Of a stretch of 64,000 bases of DNA, positions 4,682 through 19,837 are shown in pieces. Source of the stretch: an uncultured delta proteobacterium (GTDB lineage Bacteria > Desulfobacterota > Binatia > Bin18). The notes under the pieces were generated by a model. The model ran no database searches and was not told where the DNA came from. It saw only the letters and a program-made list of their open reading frames with translations. Each line of letters opens with the position of its first letter. Positions within the stretch are counted from its first letter, which is position 1. The stretch spans positions 56,046-120,045 of the forward strand of contig CAVTCR010000026.1 in the NCBI GenBank assembly GCA_963733195.1, given 5' to 3'. The position numbers and the translations under genes are program-made.

Positions 4682-5217
4682 ATGAAGAAAAATATCAATC
4701 GTCGTCAGTTCTTGCAGACGAGTGGTCTTGCTATTGCTGGCGCTGCTGTTGCTGGTACGACCGGGACACTACTGCTTGACCCGAGTGCAACTTGGGCAGT
4801 AGCAAAGGCAACACTCGATGACCATACGACTAAAACACTCGTTGTTATGTGTCGCCAGATCTACCCACATACAGTGATTGAGGATGCGGAGTATGCCAAG
4901 ACTGTCGAAGGGTTTACGAAGAAGGCAAGTACCGATCCCAGCCTTTGCTCAGCTATTGCGCGAGGGTGTTGCTACACTTGATGCCACTGCAAAAGGCAAA
5001 TGGCTAGAGGTTAAAGATGAGGACAAGCTTCAAGTCTTAAAAAGTATTGCTGACTCGCCATTTTTCCAAACAGTGCGAGGGACATTGGTCGGATGCTGGT
5101 GGACCGTACAACCTGCCAACGGTGTGGAAGAAGTTCGGCTACGAAGGGTCTTCGTGGCAGTTGGGTGGGTATCTTGCTCGTGGCTTTGACGACATCAAGT
5201 GGTTGCCAAAGGAATAG
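4682..5217 (+). CDS. Tat-exported small subunit of a GMC flavoprotein dehydrogenase (gluconate 2-dehydrogenase subunit 3-like), frameshifted
   Basis: NRRQFL Tat motif; C-terminal VWKKFGYEG..GGY..RGFDDIKWLP in a shifted frame; directly upstream of the GMC gene. Confidence 0.75.
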
Positions 5218-5231
5218 TGAGGGGAAGGATC

Positions 5232-6801
5232 ATGGCGAATTATGAATTAAAAGACGATAGCGTGGTCGTCATCATCGGCTCTGGTGCGGGCGGTGGTACC
5301 CTGGCCAATGAATTGTGTCAGAAGGGAGTGAAGGTCGTTCTCCTTGAAGCTGGCAAACGCATTGAAATTAAGGATTTTGTCAATGATGAGTGGCCGATGT
5401 TCAACAAGATCGCCTGGCTCGATAAGCGGACTACTTCTGGGTCGTGGCGTGTCGCCAAGAATTTCCCCAATCTTCCAGCATGGACAGTGAAAGCTGTCGG
5501 TGGAACGACTGTACATTGGGCTGGAGCGTCGTTGCGATTTAAGGACTTTGAATTCAAAGCCCGCTCGACCTACGGTGAGATTGCTGGTGCGAACTTGCTC
5601 GATTGGCCAATCACACTTAGCTGATTTAGAGCCGTACTATGCGCGCGCTGAGGATAAGATGGGTGTAACGGGGACCAATAGTATTCCTCGCTTGCCGGGG
5701 AACAATAATTTTAAGGTCCTTGCCGCTGGAGCGAAGAAACTCGGTTACAAGCAAGTCCACACTGGCAATATGGCGATTAACTCACAGCCGCGTGACGGAC
5801 GTAGCGGATGTATGCAAATTGGCTTCTGCTTTGAAGGTTGTAAGAGCGGAGCAAAATGGTCGACGTTGTATACGGAGATCCCCAAGGCCGAGGCGACAGG
5901 CAAACTTGACTTACGACCAGAGAGCCAGGTATTGCGTATTCTTCATAACGACAAAGGAAAAGTTTCTGGCGTTGTCTATGCCGACAAAAACGGCAAGCAG
6001 GTCGAGCAAAAAGCCCGGGTCGTCTGTGTCGCTGCGAACTCAATCGAAAGTGCGCGGCTGCTTCTCAACTCTTCCTCGAACACATTCCCAAATGGGTTGG
6101 CCAATTCTTCTGGACAGGTTGGGCGCAATTATATGCGCCATATGACTGGCAGCGTATATGGCATGTTTCCTAACGAAGTGAATATGCACCGTGGCACGAT
6201 AATGGCTGGGATTGTTGAGGACGAAGCGATCAATGATCCGAAGCGTGGTTTTGTCGGTGGCTATCATATGGAGACCATTTCACTTGGGTTGCCGTTCATG
6301 GCCGCGTTTCTTGATCCGGGAGCATGGGGACGCGACTTTACCGAGATGCTCGATCAATTTAATCACATGGCTGGCATGTGGCTGGTCGGTGAGGATATGC
6401 CGCGTGAGAGCAATCGCATCACGTTGCATGCAACTGAAAAAGACCAGTTTGGTATGCCCATTCCTAACGTGCATTTTGATGACCACGACAACGATGTTGC
6501 AATGCGTAAGCACGCCTATAAACAAGGATCTGCAATCTACAGTGCGGTTGGCGCGACGAAAAACTTTGAAACGCCGCCGTATCCTTCAACGCACAATTTG
6601 GGGACCAACCGCATGAGCGAGAAGTCGCGCGACGGTGTGGTGAACAAGTGGGGACAATCCCACGATATCGCTAACTTATTTATTTCTGATGGCAGCCAAT
6701 TTACGACCGGCGGGGCGTCAAATCCAACTTTGACGATTGTAACTCTTGCAATTCGGCAGGCTGAGTATATTACTGAGGCGATGAGTAAGCAGGATATCTG
6801 A
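5232..6801 (+). CDS. GMC family FAD oxidoreductase with Cys-rich 3Fe-4S-type motif (one frameshift near 5620)
   Basis: IIGSGAGGG, VGGTTVHW, CMQIGFCFEGC, HNLGTNRM and NPTLTI motifs. Confidence 0.9.
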
Positions 6802-6923: not shown

Positions 6924-7277
6924 CTACGACGCCGTAAACCCTTTCACGTATTTAATCAGCGCACGAATTTGCTCATCGTTGAGAATTCCCTCATACGAAG
7001 GCATGAGCGGTGATTTCCCGACACTGGCGCCACCTTCCTTGAGGAGTTTCGTCAGATACGCGGTATCCTTGCCTTTGAGGACAGTGGCCAAGTTTGCTGG
7101 CTTAGGTTGTAATACTTGAGCCGTTGGTCCGTCGCCTTTGCCCTCAGGACCATGGCACATGGCGCAGGTTTGGTCGTAGAGTTGCTTCGCTTCTTGCCCA
7201 TAGGCAGCCTCGGCGGCAAGATAAATAAAAAAGACACTCGCAGTGACTAAGAGCACTGGCTTCTGATACATCTTCAT
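6924..7277 (-). CDS. Monoheme cytochrome c
   Basis: Signal peptide, CAMCH heme motif and distal Met in LMPSY. Confidence 0.88.
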   Translation of the reverse strand: MKMYQKPVLLVTASVFFIYLAAEAAYGQEAKQLYDQTCAMCHGPEGKGDGPTAQVLQPKPANLATVLKGKDTAYLTKLLKEGGASVGKSPLMPSYEGILNDEQIRALIKYVKGFTAS

Positions 7278-7559
7278 TCATGTGTTCCCTTCAAAGACAG
7301 CAAGGATAATACACAAACGCTGACAATATAAACGAGGAAATGGGAAAACTAAAAGGGGGAAAGGCGAAACGGGGCAAAGGGGAAACGGAAAATAAAAAAA
7401 GCTCTAAACTACAGGCTGTAGGGAAAAACCAAACCGTTTGATCTACCCATCTCGCCGGCGCTCTCCCCAACGGCGCCGCCCCTGACTCCGCAGTGAAATG
7501 TCTGCCGGCCGGCTGACCGCCCCGCGACCGACCTTTGCCTGACGCTTCGTGCTTTTCCA

Positions 7560-7840
7560 GAGACGCTGCTATCTCTGTGGTTGAGCGCTCCTTCACGAAA
7601 ATCCCTTTTACTCGTATAGGTGTGTGAGATCGGAGTGGTTCCGATTAACGTCCAGCGTACATCCTTGGCCGAGATATTGAAGAAGGCCGTCCCGTCTCCA
7701 CACCACGTACCATAAAGAGCGCACAGTTTCGTTTCACCTGATCTTCCTGCCAGGTCAGACTGGGGCCAGCGCGCCAGCAATCCTTCCAACGCGATCATTG
7801 CTTCGAGCCGTGCTTAGCCTGCGCCCACGCAAAAATGGAT
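7560..7840 (-). pseudogene. Mosaic of gene remnants: cytochrome P450 C-terminal fragment plus SnoaL/NTF2-like fragment
   Basis: Minus-strand IHFCVGAG*ARLEAMIALEGLLARWP (P450 heme-Cys region with an in-frame TAA), followed by FFNISAKDVRWTLIGTTPISHTYTSK. Confidence 0.6.
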
Positions 7841-7984
7841 GCGCTCTTCATAAACGGCGACCATCGCCCGAGCCTCGTTCAGTGCGGAGCCGAAATCCTC
7901 TTCTAGGAACCCTTCGCGTCGGACAACGCGATGCTGCTTTCCTTGCGGCAAGTGGTGACCTCTTGAGGACGCGCGCACAAACCG

Positions 7985-9106
7985 CTAGAGCGTGAGCCCA
8001 TAAAACTCCGCTACGTTATCGTGGAGAATCCAGTTCTTCTGATCCTCAGTGAGCGACTGTGCGTGCGTGCGGAGGAGCTCCTGCGAATTCGGCCAGGTCG
8101 AATCGCTGTGCGGGAAATCATTCGCCCACATCAGGCGGCGCGGATTCAACATGCCGGCGCTCTTGAACGCCACCCAATCATCCTGGAAGGTCGTGTAGAT
8201 ATGCTCGCTGAAATACTCGCTCGGCTTCTTCGACAACTTGCTGGTCGTGAGCCAATAGCGATGGCGGTCATAAGCATGGTCCATGCGGTACATGAAATGC
8301 GGGACCCAACCAGCGTCCGCCTCGACGCAGGCGATCCTGAGGTTGGGATGCCGCTCGAACACCCCACCGAAAATGAACATCCCCATGATGTCCTGATTGC
8401 CGCGGATGATTGAGAGGAAGGAGTTGATCTTCGGCCCGCGGGGAGCGACCGCGATTCCTTCGCGCGACGTCAGAATATGGAAACTCAACGGCATTTGCAG
8501 CGCAATGGCCGCCTCGAAGAACTCATCATAGATCGGGCTGTCGTAGTCTTCCTGGATCGGGAAGCCGGGCATCATCACTCCGCGCAGGCCCATCGCCTTC
8601 ATCTTCTCGAGGTCCTTAATCCCTTCCTCAGGTGTCCGCATTGCGGTCTGGCCGAGCCCTAGCAGACGATCGGGATGGGCGCCGCAATACTCCGCGATCC
8701 ACAGGTTGTAGGCGTCGAAGCAGGCCTTCTTGTAGTCAGCATCGGGATGGTTGCACAGGACCATCCCGACGCTGGGATAAATGACCTCCGCGGCCACGCC
8801 GTCCCGCTCCTGGTCGGCCATGCGCGCCTCGGGGTCCCATCCCCCGCGATGGAGGTCTGTGAACTTGGCAAAACGCGCTGAGGTTGCCAAGCCCTCGGCG
8901 GAAACGCCCGCTGCCGCGACGAGTCCCATGGGGATGGTCTGCTGCATCCCGTCAATCACGTACGAGTCGCCGCTTTTGTCTTGCCACTCAACGTGCGGCG
9001 CAATGTCCTTGTACTTTTTGTCGATCCGTGCCGTGTACGTGTCCGGCGGCTCCATAATGTGAGAATCCGAGGAGATGATGGGTTTGTTGATGACGCTGTT
9101 TGCCAT
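7985..9106 (-). CDS. Amidohydrolase family protein (amidohydro_2 type)
   Basis: SSDSHIMEP, SFHI, VEADAGW and WANDFPHSDSTWP motifs. Confidence 0.9.
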   Translation of the reverse strand: MANSVINKPIISSDSHIMEPPDTYTARIDKKYKDIAPHVEWQDKSGDSYVIDGMQQTIPMGLVAAAGVSAEGLATSARFAKFTDLHRGGWDPEARMADQERDGVAAEVIYPSVGMVLCNHPDADYKKACFDAYNLWIAEYCGAHPDRLLGLGQTAMRTPEEGIKDLEKMKAMGLRGVMMPGFPIQEDYDSPIYDEFFEAAIALQMPLSFHILTSREGIAVAPRGPKINSFLSIIRGNQDIMGMFIFGGVFERHPNLRIACVEADAGWVPHFMYRMDHAYDRHRYWLTTSKLSKKPSEYFSEHIYTTFQDDWVAFKSAGMLNPRRLMWANDFPHSDSTWPNSQELLRTHAQSLTEDQKNWILHDNVAEFYGLTL

Positions 9107-9231
9107 GCTTCGCTGCTCCTTTCTTCAACTGCTCAGCCGCCTCGAATACTTGATAGGCGTGCCTGCATTATTTTATTTCAAATCTTCTCCAAATCGAGCT
9201 AGTTCATAGGTATAACTAAAAGTGGAGCACC

Positions 9232-9885
9232 TCACCGGGTGTCGTGCTCGAGCCGTACTGAAACTGGCGCTCGGTCTTCAGCTACATGCAGCGGAGCCGG
9301 CATCGCCCGCGCGTGATGCGAACGGTAGCTGCCAATGAGGATTACTTGCGCTAGGCCGCGACCGACGTTGCGCCAACGGTGTGGCGCGATACTCTTGTAG
9401 CGCACGCTGTCACCGACCCGCAGTTCAAACACGCGGTCACCGATGATGAGCTCGATCCGGCCTTGGATACAAATGAGCAGCTCTTCGCCTCGGTGCGTGA
9501 CGGTATCGGGCCCGCTGTCCTGCCCGGGCGGGATGAAGAATTCGTACGCGTCGAATTCGGGATCGCGAAGATCACCGGCGAGGGATTCAACACGCACGCC
9601 GTTCCGCGCCTGCACCGTCCGCCGACCGCGCGCCGGACAATAGCTTATGTCCAGCTCACCCGTGTCCTCGCCAATCAGGAAGCTCACGCGCTTGCGCAGG
9701 CCATTCGCGACCTTGGACAGGACCGACAAGGAGGGCACCATCTGCCCAGCCTCGATCTTCTGGATCGTGCTAACCGCCACCCCGCACCGCTGAGCGAGCT
9801 CCTGCAACGTCCAGCCCGCTTCCTGGCGGGCCGCGCGCACCCGTTCCGCAAGAACCGCTTCAGTGGAAGCTCGATTATCCGTCAT
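9232..9885 (-). CDS. XRE-family HTH plus cupin transcriptional regulator
   Basis: TLQELAQRCGVAVSTIQKIE HTH; HRGEE...GDS....PHRWRN cupin; start uncertain (ATG 9885 preferred over 10101). Confidence 0.85.
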   Translation of the reverse strand: MTDNRASTEAVLAERVRAARQEAGWTLQELAQRCGVAVSTIQKIEAGQMVPSLSVLSKVANGLRKRVSFLIGEDTGELDISYCPARGRRTVQARNGVRVESLAGDLRDPEFDAYEFFIPPGQDSGPDTVTHRGEELLICIQGRIELIIGDRVFELRVGDSVRYKSIAPHRWRNVGRGLAQVILIGSYRSHHARAMPAPLHVAEDRAPVSVRLEHDTR

Positions 9886-10621
9886 GATGAGCGCTTGTGA
9901 GCGCAGCTCCTGTTTCCAATATGCGTATACTTGTGCGTGTATCGGATTTTCCAATCCACCTACGGATATGAGCGTATCAGAAAACAGGACCACGTCAATA
10001 AGGAAGCCAGGCTCGTGCACTCGGGGTGTCTCAATCCGGGCCTGGCCGAAGGACGTGTTAATCCCGAGCTCGGGATACATACGTGTCTCGGTGTACCTCA
10101 ATTATGAATATAACTATTAGTGAATATCAACGTGAGAAAATACGAAAGTGATCAGCAGCTACCTATTTACGAAGCTTCACCTACAAGGCGTTTATCGGAC
10201 ATTTTGTGAGAGGAACGAGTTTGAGAGGTCAGTCTGAGCCTCGTTATACGGTTCCGGTGCAAATGTAGAGTCGAGCTGATAGTTATGCAGTATAAGCTTA
10301 TTTCACGAGGATTCTGCTGAGCTATTCAAAGGTCGTCACTTTAATTCCGAGATCATCACTCTCTAGATTCTGCCACGCTTACGAGCACCCACGTCTCGCG
10401 CTCTACTTTTCTGGAAACTGCCCACGCAAAGAGGAAAAATCCCGTATTCCCTGGGCGATTCCTTTACCACTAAAATAACTTGTTCGCCTCAGCATACGGG
10501 ATCGTATCTTCTGTGATCGCTTTGTAAGTGCCAGTTTCCATATGAGCGTGTGATGACTACCTGAGGACGGAACACACCACAGGCTGGCGGTTGGCTGGCA
10601 CGCCAGGAAAGGACACGAAAC

Positions 10622-10849
10622 ATGGGAACGAGGCAAGACCGTGAAGGGGACGGAGAAAACGCGGCCGCGCAACGCCGGATTGAGGAGCTGCGCGGTGAGC
10701 TCGAACGAAAACACAATGAACTGGACGGGCTGCTGCTGCGCAGTGAAACGCTGCACCCGAGTGCCTACGGGGCGCTGCAGGGGCAGTTGGAAGAGGAGAT
10801 TGAGAAGCTGCAGGCGGAACTCAAGAGCTTGACCGCAGTGGCCGGATAA
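10622..10849 (+). CDS. Small coiled-coil hypothetical protein
   Basis: RBS-like aggaaagga; heptad Leu/Glu pattern; GC-rich codon usage. Confidence 0.5.
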   Translation: MGTRQDREGDGENAAAQRRIEELRGELERKHNELDGLLLRSETLHPSAYGALQGQLEEEIEKLQAELKSLTAVAG

Positions 10850-11093
10850 ACAGGGACCAGCCGCCGGTGACACTGTGCGGGTGGTATCGGAAGGTGGCGG
10901 TCAGCGAGGAAGGGGAGCTGGAGACCACCATCCTGTGAAAAGTCGGTCAGTGACAAATGTGTATGGGAAGCTATTGGCACACTGCTCGGTAAAGGGTTGA
11001 CCGTATGTCTGCGCTCACAAAGCAAGACTGGAATCCTCCGCTGGGACGAGAGCACTGAGTGTCCAGGTCGTCACTCCCCAACTCTCGTCAAGT

Positions 11094-11519
11094 TTAGTCG
11101 CGGCCATAAGCCACACCTGATCGTTCACAGCGGGGAATTCGTGCAGTATCCTCAACCATGCGGAACAGAGGCGACTCTTGCGGAACGGTCGTCCCACGGA
11201 GCACAGCGACCGGCGTCACGCGGACGAGCGCATGGAAAAAGGGCGGCTCCCCCAGGCTCATGCCCACTGGGAGGACGTCCGTCAGGCGGCCGGTAAAGAC
11301 CAACGGCGATTGCGTGAATACATTGGTGCTCGTCATCTCCATCGTCGTCATACGTTGCTCCGGTAGTGAGGGGGGCGCGAACATACTGCAATCACCGGGT
11401 TTGCTCTCCGAGCCAGGTTCCCCACCGGACGCAAGTAGAGCACGGAGGCAGGAGGAGATGGCCCGCGCTGAGTCCACAGCGTCTACGAGCACAACGCTGG
11501 TCTGACCATGAAGGGTCAT
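11094..11519 (-). CDS. Hypothetical protein or remnant
   Basis: ORF with a protein-like central segment (SPLVFTGRLTDV...VTPVAVLRG); no family recognised. Confidence 0.25.
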   Translation of the reverse strand: MTLHGQTSVVLVDAVDSARAISSCLRALLASGGEPGSESKPGDCSMFAPPSLPEQRMTTMEMTSTNVFTQSPLVFTGRLTDVLPVGMSLGEPPFFHALVRVTPVAVLRGTTVPQESPLFRMVEDTARIPRCERSGVAYGRD

Positions 11520-11660
11520 ATGATGGAATAGAGCCGAGATACGAGAGACAGTTGAACCCTCAGCTCGGGGTTAACAGAGATTCAGCGATGGCCTCAGACC
11601 CCTAGACTCTTAGACTCTTCTTCCCATTTCCCCATTTATCCTTTCCCCTCTGCTACACCC

Positions 11661-11690
11661 TTGACAGCAGACGGTCTCTAATCGCATAAA
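11661..11690 (+). promoter_or_regulatory. Possible sigma70 promoter of the CuMMO operon
   Basis: Perfect TTGACA at 11661; only a weak -10 (cataaa) 18 bp downstream. Confidence 0.3.
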
Positions 11691-11779
11691 GGGCATGCAA
11701 TTATAGTTGGTTAGGCGAGTTTTTACTGTGGAGTCCGAGTCATTTGGATGTGCATGGCAAGCTTTAGATTATTCTATTC

Positions 11780-12355
11780 ATGATGACAATGATCGTTGGT
11801 TTGATAATGGGTTCGACAGCTTGGGCACATCGCGATCGAGGACCTGATGATCCATGTCGAAAGCAGATAGGAGATTCGCTATTGCACATCACACTCTACC
11901 AACCGCACTTTGATCCTGATGCTGAGTATTGCGAAGAGGTTCCGCGTGCAGGGAGGACAGTGGTGGTAGTAGATGTGACTGCTGGTGAATTGCGGCAAGT
12001 TCCAATCAGTGTGGAAATGGTAGCTCAGTAGTGAATCTGGGCAGTCGCGTTCGGTGTCTGTCGCTTCCGGCAAAGATATTGGATCGAGGGATGGTAGATT
12101 CTGAAGTGGTTTTGGACGAGGGCAACAATTACGTTGCTGAGGTTGTGGTTGACCTGGGGGCCGGAAAGGAACCGCAGAAATTTTCCTTTCCTATTCAAGT
12201 GGATCCATGGTATACCGCAATGGTGAAACCGGCATTGATGGTTCGTTGGGTTGCTCCTAGTAACGGTAATTTCGGTGATTCGTTATCAGATGAGTTCTCG
12301 ACAGCAGGAAGAGATGTCAGTAGGCAAAAGAAGGGTACGCCGAGTAGCAAATTAA
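11780..12355 (+). CDS. pmoD: PmoD/AmoD-family periplasmic copper protein with C-terminal TM helix (two frameshifts, ~12030 and ~12243)
   Basis: Signal peptide AWA|H; DDPC...HITLYQP...EYCEEVP.AG..VVVVD...ELR matches the PmoD/AmoD pattern; TM VGLLLVTVISVI and stop 12355 sit just before the RBS of subunit C. Confidence 0.75.
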
Positions 12356-12367
12356 GGAGGGTTCTAT

Positions 12368-13225
12368 ATGGCACAGTCACAAGTGGTGCGGCAGACGCCA
12401 CGAGAAAATGGCCACAGTACAACCACGACTGGGTATTCCGCCAAACCGACAGGCTGGATGGTTGGGTGGAAGTCGTTGTTTGTCAGCTGCGCGATCATTA
12501 TGGCAGCGAACGTGTTCCTCTGGTTCTGGAATTACGCCTATATGTTCACGGCCGGGTTGAACTCGGCGAGTCCAGAGTTCACCTATTATTACCGGTCGCT
12601 CTTTTGGGGCGAGGTCATCACGTTAGGCTTGTTTACCGGTATATGGTTTGGCTGGTTGATTAGAACAGGCCGTGAGATGGTCGGGCAACCGTGCGAGCGT
12701 GCGGAAGAGGTGCGACGAATCGCGGTTCTCTGGAGCTTGATTGGCGCTACGAGCCTCTGCGTGTATCTGATGGCTAGCTTCTGGCCGAACTGGGACGGAT
12801 CATGGCATCAGACAATGGTGCGCGATACTGCGCTTACCCCGACGCACATCCCGATGTTCTACTTCTTCTTCCCGTTGTCGGTAACTTTGGCTTTAGGCTC
12901 ATACATCTACGGACGTTTTCGTATTCCCGCGTTATATGCCAAAGAGAAGGGATTTCCGTGGTCGTTCTTCCTGTTGATTAGTGCTGCGGTGCTGGAATGC
13001 ATGACGGTTGCTGCCAATGAGTGGGGGCACAGCCTGTGGATTTCTGAAGAGATTTTCTCGGTCCCCTTCCACTGGCCGTTCGTTGTGTACGGCTGGCTAG
13101 CTAGCGGTATGTTTGCGGTGTGGGGCGAGACGATCATCCGCTTGTTCGAGATTGAAAAGGCTGAAGAAGCCGCGACCTCAGGGACGTCAGGCGCGTCGTT
13201 GCGTCAGCAGGCGGTCACAGACTAA
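12368..13225 (+). CDS. pmoC: CuMMO (pMMO/AMO family) subunit C, divergent; substrate unknown
   Basis: DGSWHQTMVRDTALTPTH (D-x3-H-x12-H) and NEWGHSLWISEEIFSVPFH motifs; RBS aaggagg. Confidence 0.95.
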   Translation: MAQSQVVRQTPRENGHSTTTTGYSAKPTGWMVGWKSLFVSCAIIMAANVFLWFWNYAYMFTAGLNSASPEFTYYYRSLFWGEVITLGLFTGIWFGWLIRTGREMVGQPCERAEEVRRIAVLWSLIGATSLCVYLMASFWPNWDGSWHQTMVRDTALTPTHIPMFYFFFPLSVTLALGSYIYGRFRIPALYAKEKGFPWSFFLLISAAVLECMTVAANEWGHSLWISEEIFSVPFHWPFVVYGWLASGMFAVWGETIIRLFEIEKAEEAATSGTSGASLRQQAVTD

Positions 13226-13335
13226 GGATAATGAAGAATGTGGAATGGAGAATGAAAAATTCAGAGCGAAACGTTCTGAACTCTTCGTTCGTTTTGTATT
13301 TTTCACATTCTTAATTCTTCATTCTTAATTTTTAA
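13226..13335. repeat. Inverted pair of ~7-nt-period tandem repeats between subunit C and subunit A genes
   Basis: aatgaagaatgtggaatggagaatgaaaaat ... atttttcacattcttaattcttcattcttaatt. Confidence 0.7.
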
Positions 13336-13356
13336 TTAGACAGAGAGGATCGCCTC

Positions 13357-14161
13357 ATGGCAGCAGGGACAACAACAGTAACTGACATTGCCGATGCCGC
13401 CGAACGGCAAAAACGGCTGGAACTCAAAGCACTCCTGAACAAGGAGTACAAGTGGATTGATCGCAGCTGGGATATCGTCTTCTGGGTAACGGCGATTTTC
13501 GTGGTCGCCGGTGCAGCGGATATCACGAAGCAGTTGTTCGCCGGTGACTGGGACTTCTGGACAGATTGGAAAGATCCCCAGTGGTGGCCGGTGGTTACCG
13601 CTTTTGCCACCATCATCATTCCCTCTGCTCTGCAATATATCCAATGGGCAGCGTGGCGCTTCCCGACAGGTGCGACATATACATCCTGTTGTTTCTTTCT
13701 TGCAGCCTGGGTTGGACGCTACTTTAATTGGCACATTGCAGAAGCCTATCCGATGAACTTCGTGTGGCCTATTTCCACGATATGCGCAGGGATCATTCTC
13801 GACTTCACGTTGATGAAGACAAAAAGTTTCCTCATCACGTCTTTTGTCGGTGCGCATCTCTGGGCAGTGCTTAGTGTGGGCGTACAATTATGTTCCGCTA
13901 GCTCCCTTTCTACAGCCTGCGATGTTCATGGACCATGTTTTGACGCTCGCTGACGTCCAAGGCATCGTCTACATTCGATCGCAGACGCCAGAGTATCTGC
14001 GACTCATTGAGCGTGGCGCATTGCGAAGTTTTCTGGGTGAGACTCAGTACGTTTCGTTAGCCTTTGCTGGGACTGCGGCTTTCGCTGGATACTGGATTGG
14101 CCAGTTCATTGGTCGGTATCTCGCTGTGTGGCCGATCCGACGATACCTGAAGACTCTCTAA
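13357..14161 (+). CDS. pmoA: CuMMO subunit A, divergent (one extra base near 13870)
   Basis: GDWDFWTDWKD, P.GAT, W..RYF, YPMNFVWP, ADVQG..Y.R..TPEYLRLIERGALR motifs. Confidence 0.94.
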
Positions 14162-14176
14162 GAACATAAAGTACGC

Positions 14177-14431
14177 ATGGGGAAACGGATGAAAACCCGA
14201 CTGGCCGTACCATCTCGACACACCTGGCTGATACATGTGACCATGTTGGCCTGCATGTTCGTGCTGCCTGCACTAGCACACGCACACGGTGGGATGGGAC
14301 CTGATGAAATTGGCCCACCTATTGGCACCGCAGGGTTGATCGGTTTTGCCAGCTATTGGGTGGTGATGCTGTGGCCTTCAAGAAAGAAGAAAGATGAGCT
14401 CACAGACTGGACCCAACAGTCAACACCCTGA
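14177..14431 (+). CDS. Small exported/membrane protein 'x' between subunits A and B (may extend to ~14533 through indels)
   Basis: Signal peptide ending AHA|HGGMG, a TM helix (GLIGFASYWVVMLW), then a basic stop-transfer RKKK. Confidence 0.7.
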   Translation: MGKRMKTRLAVPSRHTWLIHVTMLACMFVLPALAHAHGGMGPDEIGPPIGTAGLIGFASYWVVMLWPSRKKKDELTDWTQQSTP

Positions 14432-14562
14432 CGCTGCAGCGAATGACCTGGACGCCCACGCAAGAGAAAGAACCCTCGTGTGAAGCGGATTCCGCATCTG
14501 CGTAAGGTCGAGGCGGGCGCGACAGATTTCTAGCGACCAGCCCGCGAGGAGGAAAGCGAGCG

Positions 14563-15811
14563 ATGGATAGGAAGCTTTTGACAATCCTCATGACACTGGC
14601 TCTTGTGGTAACAGTCAGTGTCTCGAAAGTATTCGCTCATGGGGAAGCTGGTGACGAACCGTTCCTTAAGAACATGACCACTGCGTTTTATGACGTATCG
14701 GTCTCACCTACGGAAATCGAGGTCGGTCAACCAGTAACAGTAACGGGAACAGTCAAAATTCTCGAGACTTGGCCGCACACACTTGAGGCACCCGAGCTTG
14801 CTGCGATCGTTCCCGTAGTTCCGGGGCCTGTATTCGTCATGAAAGACCGGACTATCAATGACCAAGCCTCGGTAGGTTCGTTTTTTGCCGAGAAGGGTGG
14901 GATTTATCAGTTTAAGATGACACTCCTCGGCAAAGAGCCTGGAAAATGGCATGTCCATCCAGGGATCGCGATCAGTGGAACCGGAACGCTGGTTGGGCCT
15001 GGTGAATGGGTCAACGTGAAAGCCAGCGCGACGAAATTTGAGTTTCCTGTGACAGTTGCTCAATGGGCAGACAGTTGAACTCAACACCTACGGTGGCCAG
15101 TTCGTGTGGTGGTGGTCGTTCGCCGGATTTCTCCTTGGGATGGCGTGGATGGTGTACTGGACATTCACGAAACGAACAGTGACAAACCTTGCGGTGACGA
15201 TGCAACTTCCGGTGAACGATGACGGACCTGACATTGGTCTCATCACGCCACGTGACCACATGTGGATGAATGTCATCGCTGGCCTGACCATAGCGCTCCT
15301 GATCGTTGGCTGGACCTACTCAGCAACCCAATATCCAGTGCGATGGCCGCAGCAGACCGACTGGATTACCCCGCGTCACATTTCCTCGGGAGACAAGATG
15401 GCCGAGGTACATGCAGGCGGAGCCACCTACGATGACGGAACCGATACGTTAGTGATGAAGCTCCAAGTCAAGAACACTACAGCCAGCGCGCTTACTCTTA
15501 ACCGTGTTGTTATCGGGATGGCGACATTCGTGCCGGGCGGGGAAGCGGAACAGGCGAAAGCTGGACCGCGCGATTTCGTCGGACCGCTCGAAGTGGAACC
15601 AAAAGGTGAGATTGCTCCGGGTGAGACGAAAGATCTGACATTGACGATCGCGAGCAAGATTTTCAGTACGGCACGATTGATCCCGCTGAATGATCCGCAG
15701 CAGTTTGTTGCGGCGCTCTTACGCTTTGAGAACGCCCAAGGCGGTCAGCAGTTAGTGACAGTGCGTTCGGGCGTCGTGCCGACCCAGTTCCGTGGACAGT
15801 TCTTGCCATAA
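14563..15811 (+). CDS. pmoB: CuMMO subunit B, divergent (one extra base near 15055)
   Basis: Signal peptide VFA|HGE, GKWHVHP, GPGEW, two TM helices and second cupredoxin domain with IAPGETK; RBS gaggagg. Confidence 0.94.
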
Positions 15812-15921
15812 TCTTGCGAAGGTGGGGAGAAAATCCCCACCTCGTCAAGCTGCCAAGAGTAAACAGCGCTTCATTTTTCCTTACTTTCTCTGCTTTCCCC
15901 TTAGCCTTTAGCCTATTTCCC

Positions 15922-16395: not shown

Positions 16396-16681
16396 AGCAT
16401 TCTCCTACTGTTGCTTCACTCGCTACGGGTCTGATGCCCGAAGCTTGCTGCGAGGTTCTTCACTATTCCTCGCTCTTTTTTTGTTTGTCAACTGCAGATA
16501 GATACTGGCTGACCTCCGCGGTAGACTTTCATTCCGAGTTGCGGCTGCGGCCTCAGATCTGGAACGGCTCGATTGTGACCCTCTGTCCGCCCCAACCTTA
16601 AACGCTGCCTCATGAGGTTCTGCTGCAGCACCTGGCAATGCAAACTTGCCCTGTTGCGCAAGTCAGGATAAACCTCCCCCG

Positions 16682-18450
16682 ATGTTTATTCGTCGTGTTT
16701 TGACATTCATACTTTTTATGGTGATGTTGATGGCTGCTGTGCTGCTCGTGCCAGCTGCATGGCTTCCGCAATCGTGGCAATCTTATTACGCCGCATGGTT
16801 TGGTGAACCCTCGTACGAGGCTCCGCCCAGCAGCCAAAAAGTCGCCATTCCTCCAGCTGAACCATTTTGCCCGGACCTGCATCCTGAGTGGCGCAAAGCG
16901 CAGGAGATCGACGGTGTGACGATTGACGAGTCACTTGCTTGTTCTCCTGATAATCCGTGGGCCATTGCTGCGTTTGTCAAAGGGACGAACAACGTGTCGA
17001 TGGACACGTTGATGAAATCTGGCTTAGCGACCGATGCGGTCGTGATGGGCGAAGATAAAGATGGCGATGGTGATCCTGATGTCGTCACCATCAAGCTAGA
17101 AGTTGCGGAATTCAACGGACGCTCGCCCGATATGTCTGAAGTCATTCCTGCGTTTTTATCGCTCCGGGTATTCAACCGGGATTGTGGGTGTTTGCGCCAA
17201 AGATTGCCGGGATGGCAACAAAGAATGCAGAGACAGTAGAAGCGAACGAATTCCTACGTGCGCCGTCGCCGGTGATCCGCGTTGAACAAGGTGACACCGT
17301 GCAAGTGATTCTTGAAAATACGCACTATTTTCCGCATACGATACATTTTCATGGGGTCGATCATCCTTATTCACATCATGAAGGCCATGGCAACGACGGA
17401 GTACCAGAAGCAAATGAACTGCCTGTGATGCCTGGCGAGAGCCGTGCGTATGAATTTTCGCAAATGGCTCAGTCAGCGATGCATACTGGACATGGGGAAG
17501 TCGATCCCGGCAGACGTCGCACGTTCGAGATGGCACCACGGCATCCAGGGACGATGTTCTATCATTGTCACGTGCAACCGCAGCATCATATTCACATGGG
17601 GTTACAGGGGATGTTTGTGGTCGAGGAGAATCGCCCGAACAATTGGGTGCAGACGTTAAATATTGGTGCCGGTCACGTCCGTCATCCTTCCGTGGCGGTG
17701 CGCGAGAAATATGTGCGTGAGTATGATCTCCATTTTCAGGATATCGATAGTCAACTGAATGATCTGATCAAAAGTACGAACGACCCGCGGGTGTTAGAGA
17801 AGCGGATGAATCGGCAGTATAACATCACAAAGCGTAGCGCCAATTACTTTCTGCTCAATGGGAAATCTTTTCCATATACATTTCGTGATTCGTTGGTAGT
17901 CGTCGAACCGAACGAGAAAGTAAAATTGCGCGTGCTCGCTGGTGGTGAGGAAGGGCTATCGCTTCACCCCCATGGCCATAAAGTAAAAATCACGCACTAT
18001 GATGGCGTGGAGCACAATCCTGTAGCGCAAATTACGCGCGACGTTGTGTGGCTCAGCATGGCCCAGCGGGTGGACTTAGAACTCAACACCACGAATGACG
18101 GTTTACATGGCACTGGCGATGGTGTGTGGTTTCTTCACGACCACAAAGAGCGTGCGTTTACAACTGACGGAATGCATCCTGGTGGCAGTGCTACTGCGAT
18201 CGTGTATCGATCCTATCTTGATGAACGTGGCTGGCCAAAACTGCAAGGCGTCGATTGGTCATTGTTCTTTACTCCACAGTATTATCGGCGTGAGATTCCA
18301 GTGTGGACAACCTATGATCCGACCGGCATGTTTGGCGAACCCGGCCCTGCGACCTCGCGTCTCGGACGGTTTATCTTGCTTGGTTTTGTTGTCGGCGCGC
18401 TCCTGGGATGTTTGACTGTCTTGCTACTATCATTGCGAAAACGTGCGTAA
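16682..18450 (+). CDS. Membrane-anchored two-domain multicopper oxidase (frameshift near 17155)
   Basis: HTIHFHG, YHCHVQPQHHIHMG, LHPHGH and FLHDH motifs; N- and C-terminal TM helices; DKDGDGD loop. Confidence 0.87.
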
Positions 18451-19168
18451 GGCGGACGTGATGTGGTTCATAGTGCTGCTGTTCTTTGCTCTTTTTGTTC
18501 CATCGCGAACTATAGAGGCGCAACCTGCGACGGAGAACCTCACTCCGGCAGACTCAGGCCATGCTCACCACCAACACCAGGCTGCCTCTCATGAACACCA
18601 CGGCATGCAGATGGACATGGGTGGCATGGTGATGAATGAGAATCATGACCAACTGCCGCGGGACTGTGGCAGGATTGCTGGAGAACAAAAAATTACAGTC
18701 CATGCTGGCAGGAAGTACGCGCAGCAGTTCAACGGCACGATGTTCGCGTACGATCAGCACGAATGGGATGTTGCTCCGTGCACGAAAGTGACTGTGACGT
18801 TGGAGAATGAAGATACTGTGCGTCATCAATGGATGCTGCACGGATTGCCACGCTATCTTCATGCCGAGGGCATGTTTCATCTCGAAGTCAACGGACGAGG
18901 GAGTAAGAGTGGAACGTTTATCACACCGGGTGCGAAGAAAACCTACCTTGTTCACTGTGATGTTGCCCAACACATGGAAAAAGGCATGAAGGCCCAGCTG
19001 AAAGTTGGCGGAGGCGATGGTAATCTGCCAAGTATTCCTGGTATTACCGGGGCTCGTTACCCAGAAACATATTCGGGTGCACGAGTTGGATGGGGTACGT
19101 GGATAATTCTTCTTCTGTGTCTGTTTAGTGCTGCTTTGACTGTACGTGGGTTGAGACGGTGGGAATAA
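18443..19168 (+). CDS. Cupredoxin-domain (type 1 Cu) protein with His/Met-rich linker and C-terminal TM
   Basis: Signal peptide, GHAHHQH..HEHHGMQMDMGGM, HQW...HCDVAQHMEKGM; overlaps the MCO stop. Confidence 0.82.
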   Translation: MRKADVMWFIVLLFFALFVPSRTIEAQPATENLTPADSGHAHHQHQAASHEHHGMQMDMGGMVMNENHDQLPRDCGRIAGEQKITVHAGRKYAQQFNGTMFAYDQHEWDVAPCTKVTVTLENEDTVRHQWMLHGLPRYLHAEGMFHLEVNGRGSKSGTFITPGAKKTYLVHCDVAQHMEKGMKAQLKVGGGDGNLPSIPGITGARYPETYSGARVGWGTWIILLLCLFSAALTVRGLRRWE

Positions 19169-19216: not shown

Positions 19217-19837
19217 TTGAAAAGATTTGAGAAACATAATCGTCGGTCTGTACGACTGTCTGGGTACGATTATAATCAGCCAGGAATGTATTTTGTCACA
19301 ATCTGTACCGTGAATTGCGAGTTGTTGTTTGGGGAGGTCGTGGGAGGGAAGATGGTAATGAGCGAGTGGGGAGGGGAGGTAAACGCATGTTGGCAAGCGA
19401 TAAACGCCCATTTCCGACACGTAGAATTGGATGAATTCCAGATCATGCCGAATCACCTACACGGGATATTAACCATTGCCCAGAGGTATGAGGAGGCTCC
19501 CTCGGTCGTAGGGGCGCAGCATGCTGCGCCCCTACAGCGAAATGTGATCTCTCCAAATGTCCATCCGGGCTCACTAGCGGCGATCGTCCGCTCCTTCAAA
19601 TCCGCGGTTTCTGCACACGTCAACCTCCTACGTCAAACCCCTGGTACCCCCGTTTGGCAACGCAACTACCACGAACACGTCGTTCGCGACGAAAACGATC
19701 TTCATCGAATTCGTGAGTACATCCAAACGAATCCCTTGCGCTGGGAACTGGATCGTGAGAACCCCAAGCGGCGAGGTGAAGATGAATTCGACAAATGGTT
19801 TGAGGGAACCACACAGCAAAAGAAGAATCGTCCGTAG
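19217..19837 (+). mobile_element. REP-associated tyrosine transposase (RAYT, Y1/HUH family)
   Basis: RRSVRL.GYDY...G.YFVTICT, IMPNHLHGI (HUH) and WQRNYHEHVVR...IREYI..NP..W motifs. Confidence 0.92.
19508..19535. repeat. REP palindrome (perfect, 28 bp) inside the RAYT coding sequence
   Basis: gtaggggcgcagca|tgctgcgcccctac, read as VGAQHAAPL. Confidence 0.88.

Follow-up and report, generated by a model that had tools for sequence, protein, structure and literature searches.

A Binatia copper membrane monooxygenase operon with a C-A-x-B core and an upstream PmoD homologue

What kind of copper membrane monooxygenase (CuMMO) is encoded by the five-gene operon at positions 11780–15811 of a 64,000-nucleotide stretch of DNA from an uncultured bacterium of the class Binatia (contig CAVTCR010000026.1 of assembly GCA_963733195.1; the whole stretch is hereafter called the window)? 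The closest described systems come from the same lineage. In the text of their paper, Murphy et al. (2021) report CuMMO genes in 11 Binatota genomes, 8 with a CAxB or CAxxB layout and 5 with pmoD (PMC8262859). That text divides the Binatota CuMMOs into two clades—TUSC cluster 2 and one affiliated with Actinobacteria/SAR324—treats their substrate as uncertain and reports that the PmoB histidines are conserved (PMC8262859). Binatia pmoA is called “closer to proposed butane monooxygenases” in the text of a second article (PMC11264602). The text of a third, a 2026 preprint, defines a “putative pmoA Binatales” clade of 81 metagenome-assembled genomes (MAGs), which lies with the hydrocarbon monooxygenases and is distinct from verified pmoA, and finds that Binatia MAGs with TUSC-type pmoA have incomplete or missing methane-processing modules (10.64898/2026.02.02.703227).

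Judged by sequence, the window operon is a member of an already described CuMMO clade of Binatales/Binataceae genomes and not a new kind of enzyme. A preliminary description of the window had mentioned that CAxB layouts occur in Binatota, and this is indeed in print (text of PMC8262859). The novelty it ascribed to the clade was overstated: the clade is described in the texts of PMC8262859, PMC11264602, and 10.64898/2026.02.02.703227, and it is found in at least 80 species-level genomes. We consider it likely that this is the only CuMMO operon in the genome of an uncultured Binatia bacterium, that its genes are functional, and that the enzyme acts on a small hydrophobic substrate—most likely a short-chain alkane or alkene—with two further proteins, D and x, as accessory components. 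The window adds one member to a Binatia CuMMO clade that is common in soils and sediments; at stake is whether its carriers consume methane, short alkanes, or something else.

Core subunits and frame breaks

Five co-oriented genes on the + strand, at window positions 11780–15811, encode a PmoD homologue (D), PmoC, PmoA, a small membrane protein (x), and PmoB:

11780–12352, + strand: pmoD-like gene D; signal peptide, cupredoxin-type periplasmic domain, and C-terminal transmembrane helix; start uncertain
12368–13225, + strand: pmoC-type subunit C; 285 aa, intact; Pfam AmoC at 4e-44
13357–14161, + strand: pmoA-type subunit A; two frames, with one surplus base at ~13869–13872; Pfam AMO
14177–14567, + strand: gene x, small membrane protein; open frame stops at 14431, with the tail in shifted frames to ~14567
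14563–15811, + strand: pmoB-type subunit B; signal peptide and histidine brace; surplus base at ~15053; Pfam Monooxygenase_B

The D-C-A-x-B arrangement given in the preliminary description is borne out by Pfam, by homology to the PmoD structure PDB 6CPD, and by the reading frames. The stretch is a genuine CuMMO gene cluster carried by an uncultured member of the class Binatia from soil. All three core subunits pass the Pfam gathering thresholds (AmoC PF04896, AMO PF02461, and Monooxygenase_B PF04744): C reaches 151 bits (cut-off 26.7), the two pieces of A reach 126 and 57.5 bits (cut-off 27.5), and the two pieces of B reach 137.5 and 107 bits (cut-off 22.7). Within A, profile positions 7–148 match 13357–13953 and positions 148–232 match 13844–14161; within B, positions 1–140 match 14563–15078 and positions 140–379 match 15056–15811. 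The window subunits match solved chains of particulate methane monooxygenase (pMMO) and ammonia monooxygenase (AMO) with E-values of ~1e-19 to 1e-39. A second AMO-family locus was not found in the window's genome, where the CuMMO operon is present as a single copy.

Are the copper sites complete? Alignment to solved pMMO chains places every copper ligand of PmoB and PmoC where the preliminary description had put it. In PmoC, the CuC-type ligands D143-x3-H147-x12-H160 lie at 12794–12847, in the context WPNWDGSWH as compared with FTEQDGAWH in pMMO, and the CuD-type ligands N217-x3-H221-x13-H235 lie at 13016–13072. In PmoB, the segment VFA/H26-GEAGDEPF (the slash marks the predicted cleavage site) and the motif W-H130-V-H132 align with the His33/His137/His139 brace of Methylococcus capsulatus (3RGB chain A); the three histidines are encoded at 14638–14640 (H26), 14950–14952 (H130), and 14956–14958 (H132). 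These copper-ligand residues of PmoB and PmoC are invariant across 34 members of the clade.

Several noncoding elements accompany the core genes. A ribosome-binding site, AAGGAGG, lies 5' of pmoC at 12353–12359. The spacer between pmoC and pmoA (13226–13356) is A+T-rich and poorly conserved, with a stem-loop at 13260–13280, and in several related contigs the alignment breaks in this spacer, with joints and loose ends at 13223–13355. Directly 3' of the pmoB stop codon is a G+C-rich hairpin at 15822–15845 (GGTGGGGAG/loop/TCCCCACC), which is likely the operon terminator; a scan for consensus terminators did not call it. A congener has a similar hairpin after pmoB, followed by a T-run. Over promoters and terminators, the consensus scan returned 10 and 11 sites where 6.8 and 7.3 were expected, and it called no promoter 5' of D.

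How should the broken reading frames be understood? The preliminary description had noted two indels, at ~13870 and ~15055, and had spoken of an intact, uncharacterised clade. Both indels are seen, but the full count of frame breaks in the window copy is about seven, spread over D, A, x, and B; “uncharacterised” stands, whereas “intact” was an overstatement. D leaves its frame at ~12030 and regains it at ~12244, A has one surplus base at ~13870 and B one at ~15053, and the tail of x is shifted at ~14399, 14447, and 14522, with its real end at ~14567. On the two sides of its break, PmoA is 98% and 92% identical to the intact 267-aa PmoA of the congener.

One account of these breaks is that they are real and that the operon is a decaying pseudogene cluster, its enzyme no longer made in this strain. 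Some observations do speak for this account or against functional genes: about seven breaks in 4 kb is a higher density than that of rpoB (2 in ~4 kb) or rpoC (at least 3 in ~4 kb); a search of sequencing runs found none with this strain in which the breaks could be checked, the best run sharing 0.10 of the sampled words; and the related sequence in three RNA libraries reaches at most ~97% identity and is present as contigs, which are no proof of transcription. Yet rpoB and rpoC, which are essential, are broken likewise in the same assembly, into 3 and at least 4 pieces, respectively. One of its three uvrA-type genes is split, and at least five other genes of the window are split or cut short (those for a GMC oxidoreductase, Wzt, a zinc-dependent alcohol dehydrogenase [Zn-ADH], a histidine kinase, and a multicopper oxidase [MCO]). 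The operon genes have no stop or radical change caused by substitution, and the ratio of nonsynonymous to synonymous substitution rates (dN/dS) against two relatives is 0.005–0.21 for every piece on both sides of each break. The end branch of PmoA, at 0.012, is among the shortest in the clade. When bases at the breaks were compared with contigs of related strains (as opposed to the organism's own reads), the base at 13870 was missing from contigs of two runs and that at 15054 from a related contig; one contig also lacked the bases at 14399 and 14447. In the 10 loci fetched from sampled genomes, each operon gene reads through in a single frame, and similar breaks occur in a few other MAGs (L039, L059, and L102).

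Because rpoB, rpoC, and other window genes are split too, dN/dS is low, and related contigs lack the surplus bases, the breaks most probably arose as errors in the assembly consensus, and the genes are most likely functional in the organism. We regard decay of the operon as very improbable, and breaks in this assembly are not to be taken as gene decay. Frame breaks are found assembly-wide, for example at window positions 5199/5500, 16646/17182, and 52412/53148 and, elsewhere in the genome, at C71:133111–141235 (rpoB and rpoC).

Distribution and phylogeny of the clade

Which organisms carry such operons, and how constant is their gene order? Among GTDB species genomes, 485 stretches encode a PmoC relative. 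The counts given over 80 loci refer to the best 80 of these 485, retrieved with a 10-sequence PmoC alignment and with no pMMO or AMO references among them. C is at least 66% identical in these 80 loci, whose titles mostly name Binatia, Binataceae, or a “delta proteobacterium” MAG. A protein collection clustered at 90% contains 337 PmoC relatives, the best 120 of which are 54–92% identical; those of the 120 that bear an organism name belong to Candidatus Binataceae or Binatia. At 50% clustering the clade falls into one cluster (80% identity to its representative) and the next full-length clusters are 37–43% identical, the nearest outgroup clusters (P0125, P0126, and P0129) having either no name or a generic subunit C name. 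Four of the 10 protein clusters examined have a named member, with two organism names between them (Binatia and Entotheonellia), and none is a characterised enzyme. In sampled genomes, C was present at 73–91% identity in 20 of 24 from the same family, in the single genome from a second family, and in 1 of 2 from a third; it was absent from the sampled genomes of nine other families. Phylum-wide, it was present in 2 of 401 genomes drawn, one of these two being the window's own.

The synteny survey of closest relatives that the preliminary description had proposed gave a uniform result: the order is C-A-x-B in all 74 loci with complete A and B. The position of D is more variable. In the 75 loci with sufficient room, a PmoD-like gene lies upstream of C in 57, at a distance of no more than 500 nt in 41 and farther away in 16, and none was detected with the query used in the remaining 18. 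A second D-like gene, 30–39% identical, follows B in 28 of 71 loci with room. Many members of the family carry a second CuMMO operon in C-A-B order, with no x and with a C that is 30–35% identical (loci L110–L114; genomes G017, G009, G023, G026, and G021). The second copy of G026, a genome from another taxonomic order, clusters with pxm, and its B is followed by a D-like gene. The window's genome is without a second copy of this C-A-B type.

To place the operon, trees were built for C (65 rows), A (30), and B (29) by a “quick” search with a small reference set. The references were the hmoCAB genes of Mycolicibacterium chubuense NBB4 and two other actinobacterial operons, with Methylomagnum pxm in the C and A trees only and the orphan pmoC of Methylocystis and orphan amoC of Nitrosomonas in the C tree only. 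In all three trees the window's subunits are monophyletic with Binatia CuMMO genes at 100% support. The clade has long stems, whose lengths in changes per column are 1.04 (C), 1.75 (A), and 2.12 (B), and the window sits beside the congener on end branches of 0.041 (C), 0.012 (A), and 0.087 (B). The C tree places the clade in the half that holds the actinobacterial hmo genes and the pMMO/pxm/AMO references in the other half, a split with 99% SH-aLRT support. Within this tree the clade is apart from Methylocystis pmoC, Nitrosomonas amoC, Methylomagnum pxm, and NBB4 hmo, and it is nested with none of the pmo, pxm, or amo references of that small set. Nor is it nested within the actinobacterial Hmo/Bmo clade, from which it stands apart as a clade of its own in each of the three trees. 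The preliminary description had set short branches inside a characterised clade against its own reading; the window does nest on short branches in a described clade, but one that is not biochemically characterised.

All the NCBIfam equivalog cut-offs searched (AmoA/B/C_BACT and TIGR03078–03080) were missed. C scores 166 bits against a cut-off of 319 and 146 against 281; with A and B taken from the intact relative L017, A reaches 198 (cut-off 290) and 170 (cut-off 318), and B reaches 269 (cut-off 336) and 180 (cut-off 395). These results bear on two alternative readings of the substrate. According to the first, the operon encodes a pMMO in an organism that oxidises methane (at atmospheric levels, for instance), as was first proposed for Binatota; according to the second, the enzyme is an AMO or acts on another small substrate (alkenes, ethers, or trace gases) and is not an alkane hydroxylase. 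The clade's position apart from pMMO-type references in the C tree and its pMMO/AMO equivalog scores, all far below cut-off, argue against the first; its distance from Nitrosomonas amoC in the same tree argues against the second. Together with the Binatia MAGs that carry it, the trees and missed cut-offs support the view, already taken in the preliminary description, of an uncharacterised CuMMO clade belonging to neither classical methanotrophs nor nitrifiers. The clade is probably non-TUSC, because it is common in Binataceae-titled genomes and because a different, second copy in another order (G026 and L113) groups with pxm.

The PmoD homologue and gene x

What do the two additional genes of the operon encode? 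By sequence comparison, D (at 11780) is genuinely homologous to PmoD. It is linked to the PmoD structure PDB 6CPD at E 1.2e-8 through an intact relative (L017:1323–2012), which is also 33% identical (E 2e-25) to the protein adjoining the plasmid-borne Nitrosomonas orphan amoC and matches the protein adjoining the orphan pmoC of a Methylocystis plasmid at E 6e-16. The features of the PmoD/AmoD family are present in D: a signal peptide, a periplasmic domain, two cysteines, and a transmembrane helix at the C-terminus. Its predicted mature N-terminal residue is His17 (11828–11830), followed by Cys26 (11855–11857), His36 (11885–11887), and Cys51 (11930–11932).

PmoD homologues fall into motif classes, Cx9HxnC and Cx7MxHxnC, which we adopt from the text of Fisher et al. 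2018, where homologues of the Cx9HxnC class are reported to bind copper without forming CuA (PMC6189053). All 68 relatives of D have the motif Cx9HxnC and none has the CuA-forming motif Cx7MxHxnC, which puts D outside the CuA-forming subclass. Both cysteines are kept in at least 90% of these relatives, and a predicted N-terminal histidine is found in 53 of 68. Relative to the PmoD/AmoD/AmoE proteins (6CPD), D shares the signal peptide, two-cysteine periplasmic domain, and C-terminal transmembrane helix, and differs in lacking the CuA ligand Met49 (the aligned relative L017 has Leu at this place). Neither D nor x matches a Pfam or NCBIfam family. In 14 of the 68 relatives, D has a C-terminal SCO1/SenC domain (PF02630, 2.9e-18); this PmoD-SCO1/SenC fusion is seen in one subclade (L075:4683–5900 and 13 other loci). 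Because these natural PmoD-Sco fusions point there, D may have a role in copper delivery.

Gene x encodes a protein with a signal peptide ending in AHA, a predicted mature N-terminal His37 (14285–14287) in the context H-G-G-M-G-P-D-E-I-G-P-P, one transmembrane helix (YW..L.WP), and a basic tail. Its tail overlaps the start of pmoB (ATGGATAG), as it also does in close relatives. Over 87 sequences the consensus is AxA/H-(G)-G-M..E.GPP, the slash again marking cleavage, followed by the transmembrane helix with YW..L.WP; conservation was also examined in a 34-sequence alignment. All 481 homologues of x are unnamed and without a Pfam domain, and the texts of the published accounts describe x only as a “hypothetical protein”; literature searches found no biochemical study of a Binatia CuMMO. 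Going by cleavage sites read from the sequence, the mature forms of D, x, and B are each predicted to begin with histidine.

In some genomes x and PmoB form a single protein. One of 84 loci has an x-PmoB fusion in a single open reading frame (ORF) (L079:7681–9303), and such fusions make up six protein clusters (P0416–P0421), two of which have 47 and 39 members and one of which has a frameshifted tail. The fusions are ~490–540 aa long and retain the PmoB signal peptide as an internal segment. A candidate PmoA-x fusion in L104 was rejected on account of a stop codon, and the single-member PmoA-x proteins P0422 and P0423, which seem to be frameshifted, were left aside.

How might D and x serve the enzyme? 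They would load copper or act as accessory subunits of PmoB. A more specific proposal, which we put forward tentatively and think less probable than not, is that x is a fourth CuMMO component: a single-pass protein whose mature His-Gly-Gly-Met end would bind periplasmic copper beside PmoB, as either a stoichiometric subunit or a loader of the brace. The upstream PmoD homologue might then be a Sco-linked chaperone feeding x and, with the MCO and cupredoxin-like protein encoded downstream, the locus could constitute a self-contained module of copper and electron supply. The natural x-PmoB and PmoD-Sco fusions offer testable hints on the route by which copper enters such enzymes.

Neighbouring genes, substrate, and known systems

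Four genes flanking the operon recur at related loci:

5199–6801, + strand: GMC-family flavin oxidoreductase; Pfam GMC_oxred_N and GMC_oxred_C; frameshift at ~5500–5620
6924–7277, − strand: small c-type cytochrome; Pfam Cytochrom_C at 4.5e-13
16646–18450, + strand: MCO, membrane-anchored and two-domain-laccase-like; Pfam Cu-oxidase_3, Cu-oxidase_2, and Cu-oxidase; frameshift at ~17190
18443–19168, + strand: putative cupredoxin-like membrane protein; His/Met-rich N-terminus and H...C-x5-H-x4-M, type-1-copper-like (HCDVAQHMEKGM)

Copies of the GMC oxidoreductase, 72–88% identical, are present in 38 of 80 loci. Its family is that of AlkJ, the alcohol dehydrogenase of alkane pathways, and the enzyme is a candidate for an alcohol-oxidising step. 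The cytochrome c is present in 26 of 80 loci and, in the closest relatives (L015 and L017), lies directly upstream of pmoD. A Zn-ADH follows B directly in 9 of 80 loci. An intact relative of the MCO matches PDB 2ZWN (9.7e-25) and 3G5W (2.9e-21), the latter presumably a Nitrosomonas protein. The product of 18443–19168 appears cupredoxin-like from its motif, its database matches being weak: E is 0.17 to a blue copper domain and 0.0036 to Cu-oxidase_2, the latter under the cut-off. In 33 of 69 loci with room, pmoB is followed by the pair of genes for the MCO and the cupredoxin-like protein, which may supply electrons or copper. A PmoD-type protein, x, the MCO, the cupredoxin-like protein, and the GMC oxidoreductase with cytochrome c together make up the conserved set of partners.

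Two other features of the neighbourhood were recorded. The ~4.4 kb between cytochrome c and pmoD (window 7400–11700) hold an amidohydrolase, an XRE-cupin regulator, and unassigned ORFs, have no counterpart in related loci, and look like an insertion. An ORF at 19217–19837 has a weak match to an IS200-like Y1 transposase (9.9e-5).

What, then, does the enzyme oxidise? With O2 activated at copper, a PmoABC-type membrane complex would hydroxylate a substrate that is small and hydrophobic, and the alcohol product would pass to alcohol dehydrogenases encoded nearby or elsewhere in the genome (the GMC flavoprotein with cytochrome c, Zn-ADH, or pyrroloquinoline quinone-dependent alcohol dehydrogenase [PQQ-ADH]). 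A route from hydrocarbon to alcohol is favoured because the neighbourhood holds a GMC oxidoreductase, a cytochrome c, and a Zn-ADH. On these sequence features, short-chain alkanes or alkenes are the substrates that we favour over methane or ammonia, with a confidence that stops somewhat short of even.

Methane oxidation draws support from the presence of all the pMMO copper ligands and from four PQQ-ADH genes of the methanol/ethanol family that score above the model's cut-off, with one more intact gene below it and another in pieces. Methanotrophy in Binatia is, moreover, discussed in the texts of PMC8262859 and PMC11264602. On the other side, the 93%-complete genome yielded no fae, hps, or RuBisCO genes, in a search that did not extend to the serine cycle or glutathione-linked formaldehyde oxidation. 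The text of 10.64898/2026.02.02.703227 likewise places the Binatales clade among hydrocarbon monooxygenases and reports incomplete or missing methane modules in TUSC-type Binatia MAGs. With the tree and equivalog results given above, this makes methane an unlikely substrate. For ammonia or another small substrate, the conserved two-domain MCO, most similar to 2ZWN and 3G5W, can be cited. CuMMOs such as pMMO and AMO are also promiscuous, and we count this in favour of the same alternative. The alcohol-oxidising neighbours, however, fit a hydrocarbon product better. A search with PF13447, a stand-in for hydroxylamine oxidoreductase, found no multihaem protein of that type in the genome, but it was negative in control genomes as well and is therefore uninformative. 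We rate ammonia and other substrates a little lower still than methane. A soluble di-iron monooxygenase (PF02332) was not found in the 93%-complete genome, and no control genome gave a match either.

Some points weigh against a functional Binatia enzyme acting on short hydrocarbons. Its substrate is reached by inference, as no member of the clade has been assayed, and methane oxidation would fit if the PQQ dehydrogenases were methanol dehydrogenases of the XoxF type, as they could be. The trees come from a quick search in which the pMMO/AMO-type references (orphan pmoC and amoC) are in the C tree only, and the choice among the published labels for the clade—Actinobacteria/SAR324-type, “putative pmoA Binatales,” or TUSC—is provisional. 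With these points taken into account, a functional CuMMO with a small hydrophobic substrate remains the reading that we consider likely.

How does the operon compare with known systems? With the Binatota CAxB CuMMOs, as described in the text of PMC8262859, it has in common the lineage, the C-A-x-B order, an associated pmoD, and conserved PmoB histidines, and its C is 66–91% identical to that of the clade loci. We see no essential difference from them; of the two published Binatota clades, it probably does not belong to the TUSC one. With the proteobacterial pMMO and AMO (3RGB, 3RFR, 7S4H, 9CL6, and others) it shares the three subunits, the CuB, CuC, and CuD ligands, and a protein of the PmoD/AmoD family, while its PmoC is 31–34% identical to plasmid-borne pmoC, pxmC, and amoC of Proteobacteria. 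It differs from pMMO and AMO in having D upstream instead of downstream, in the class of D (Cx9HxnC, not the CuA-forming Cx7MxHxnC), and in the extra gene x.

The actinobacterial HmoCAB systems (NBB4 plasmid pMYCCH.01, M. dioxanotrophicus, and Rhodococcus sp. ZPP) fall in the same half of the PmoC tree. Their order is C-A-B, with small unnamed genes nearby but no x between A and B, and they have no PmoD-like match at E 1e-4 or better. Identity to the window's subunits is 32–38% (C), 40–49% (A), and 25–43% (B), and the Binatia proteins form a separate, well-supported clade. The Hmo of NBB4 reportedly acts on C2–C4 alkanes. HmoCAB is the likely functional analogue of the Binatia CuMMO.

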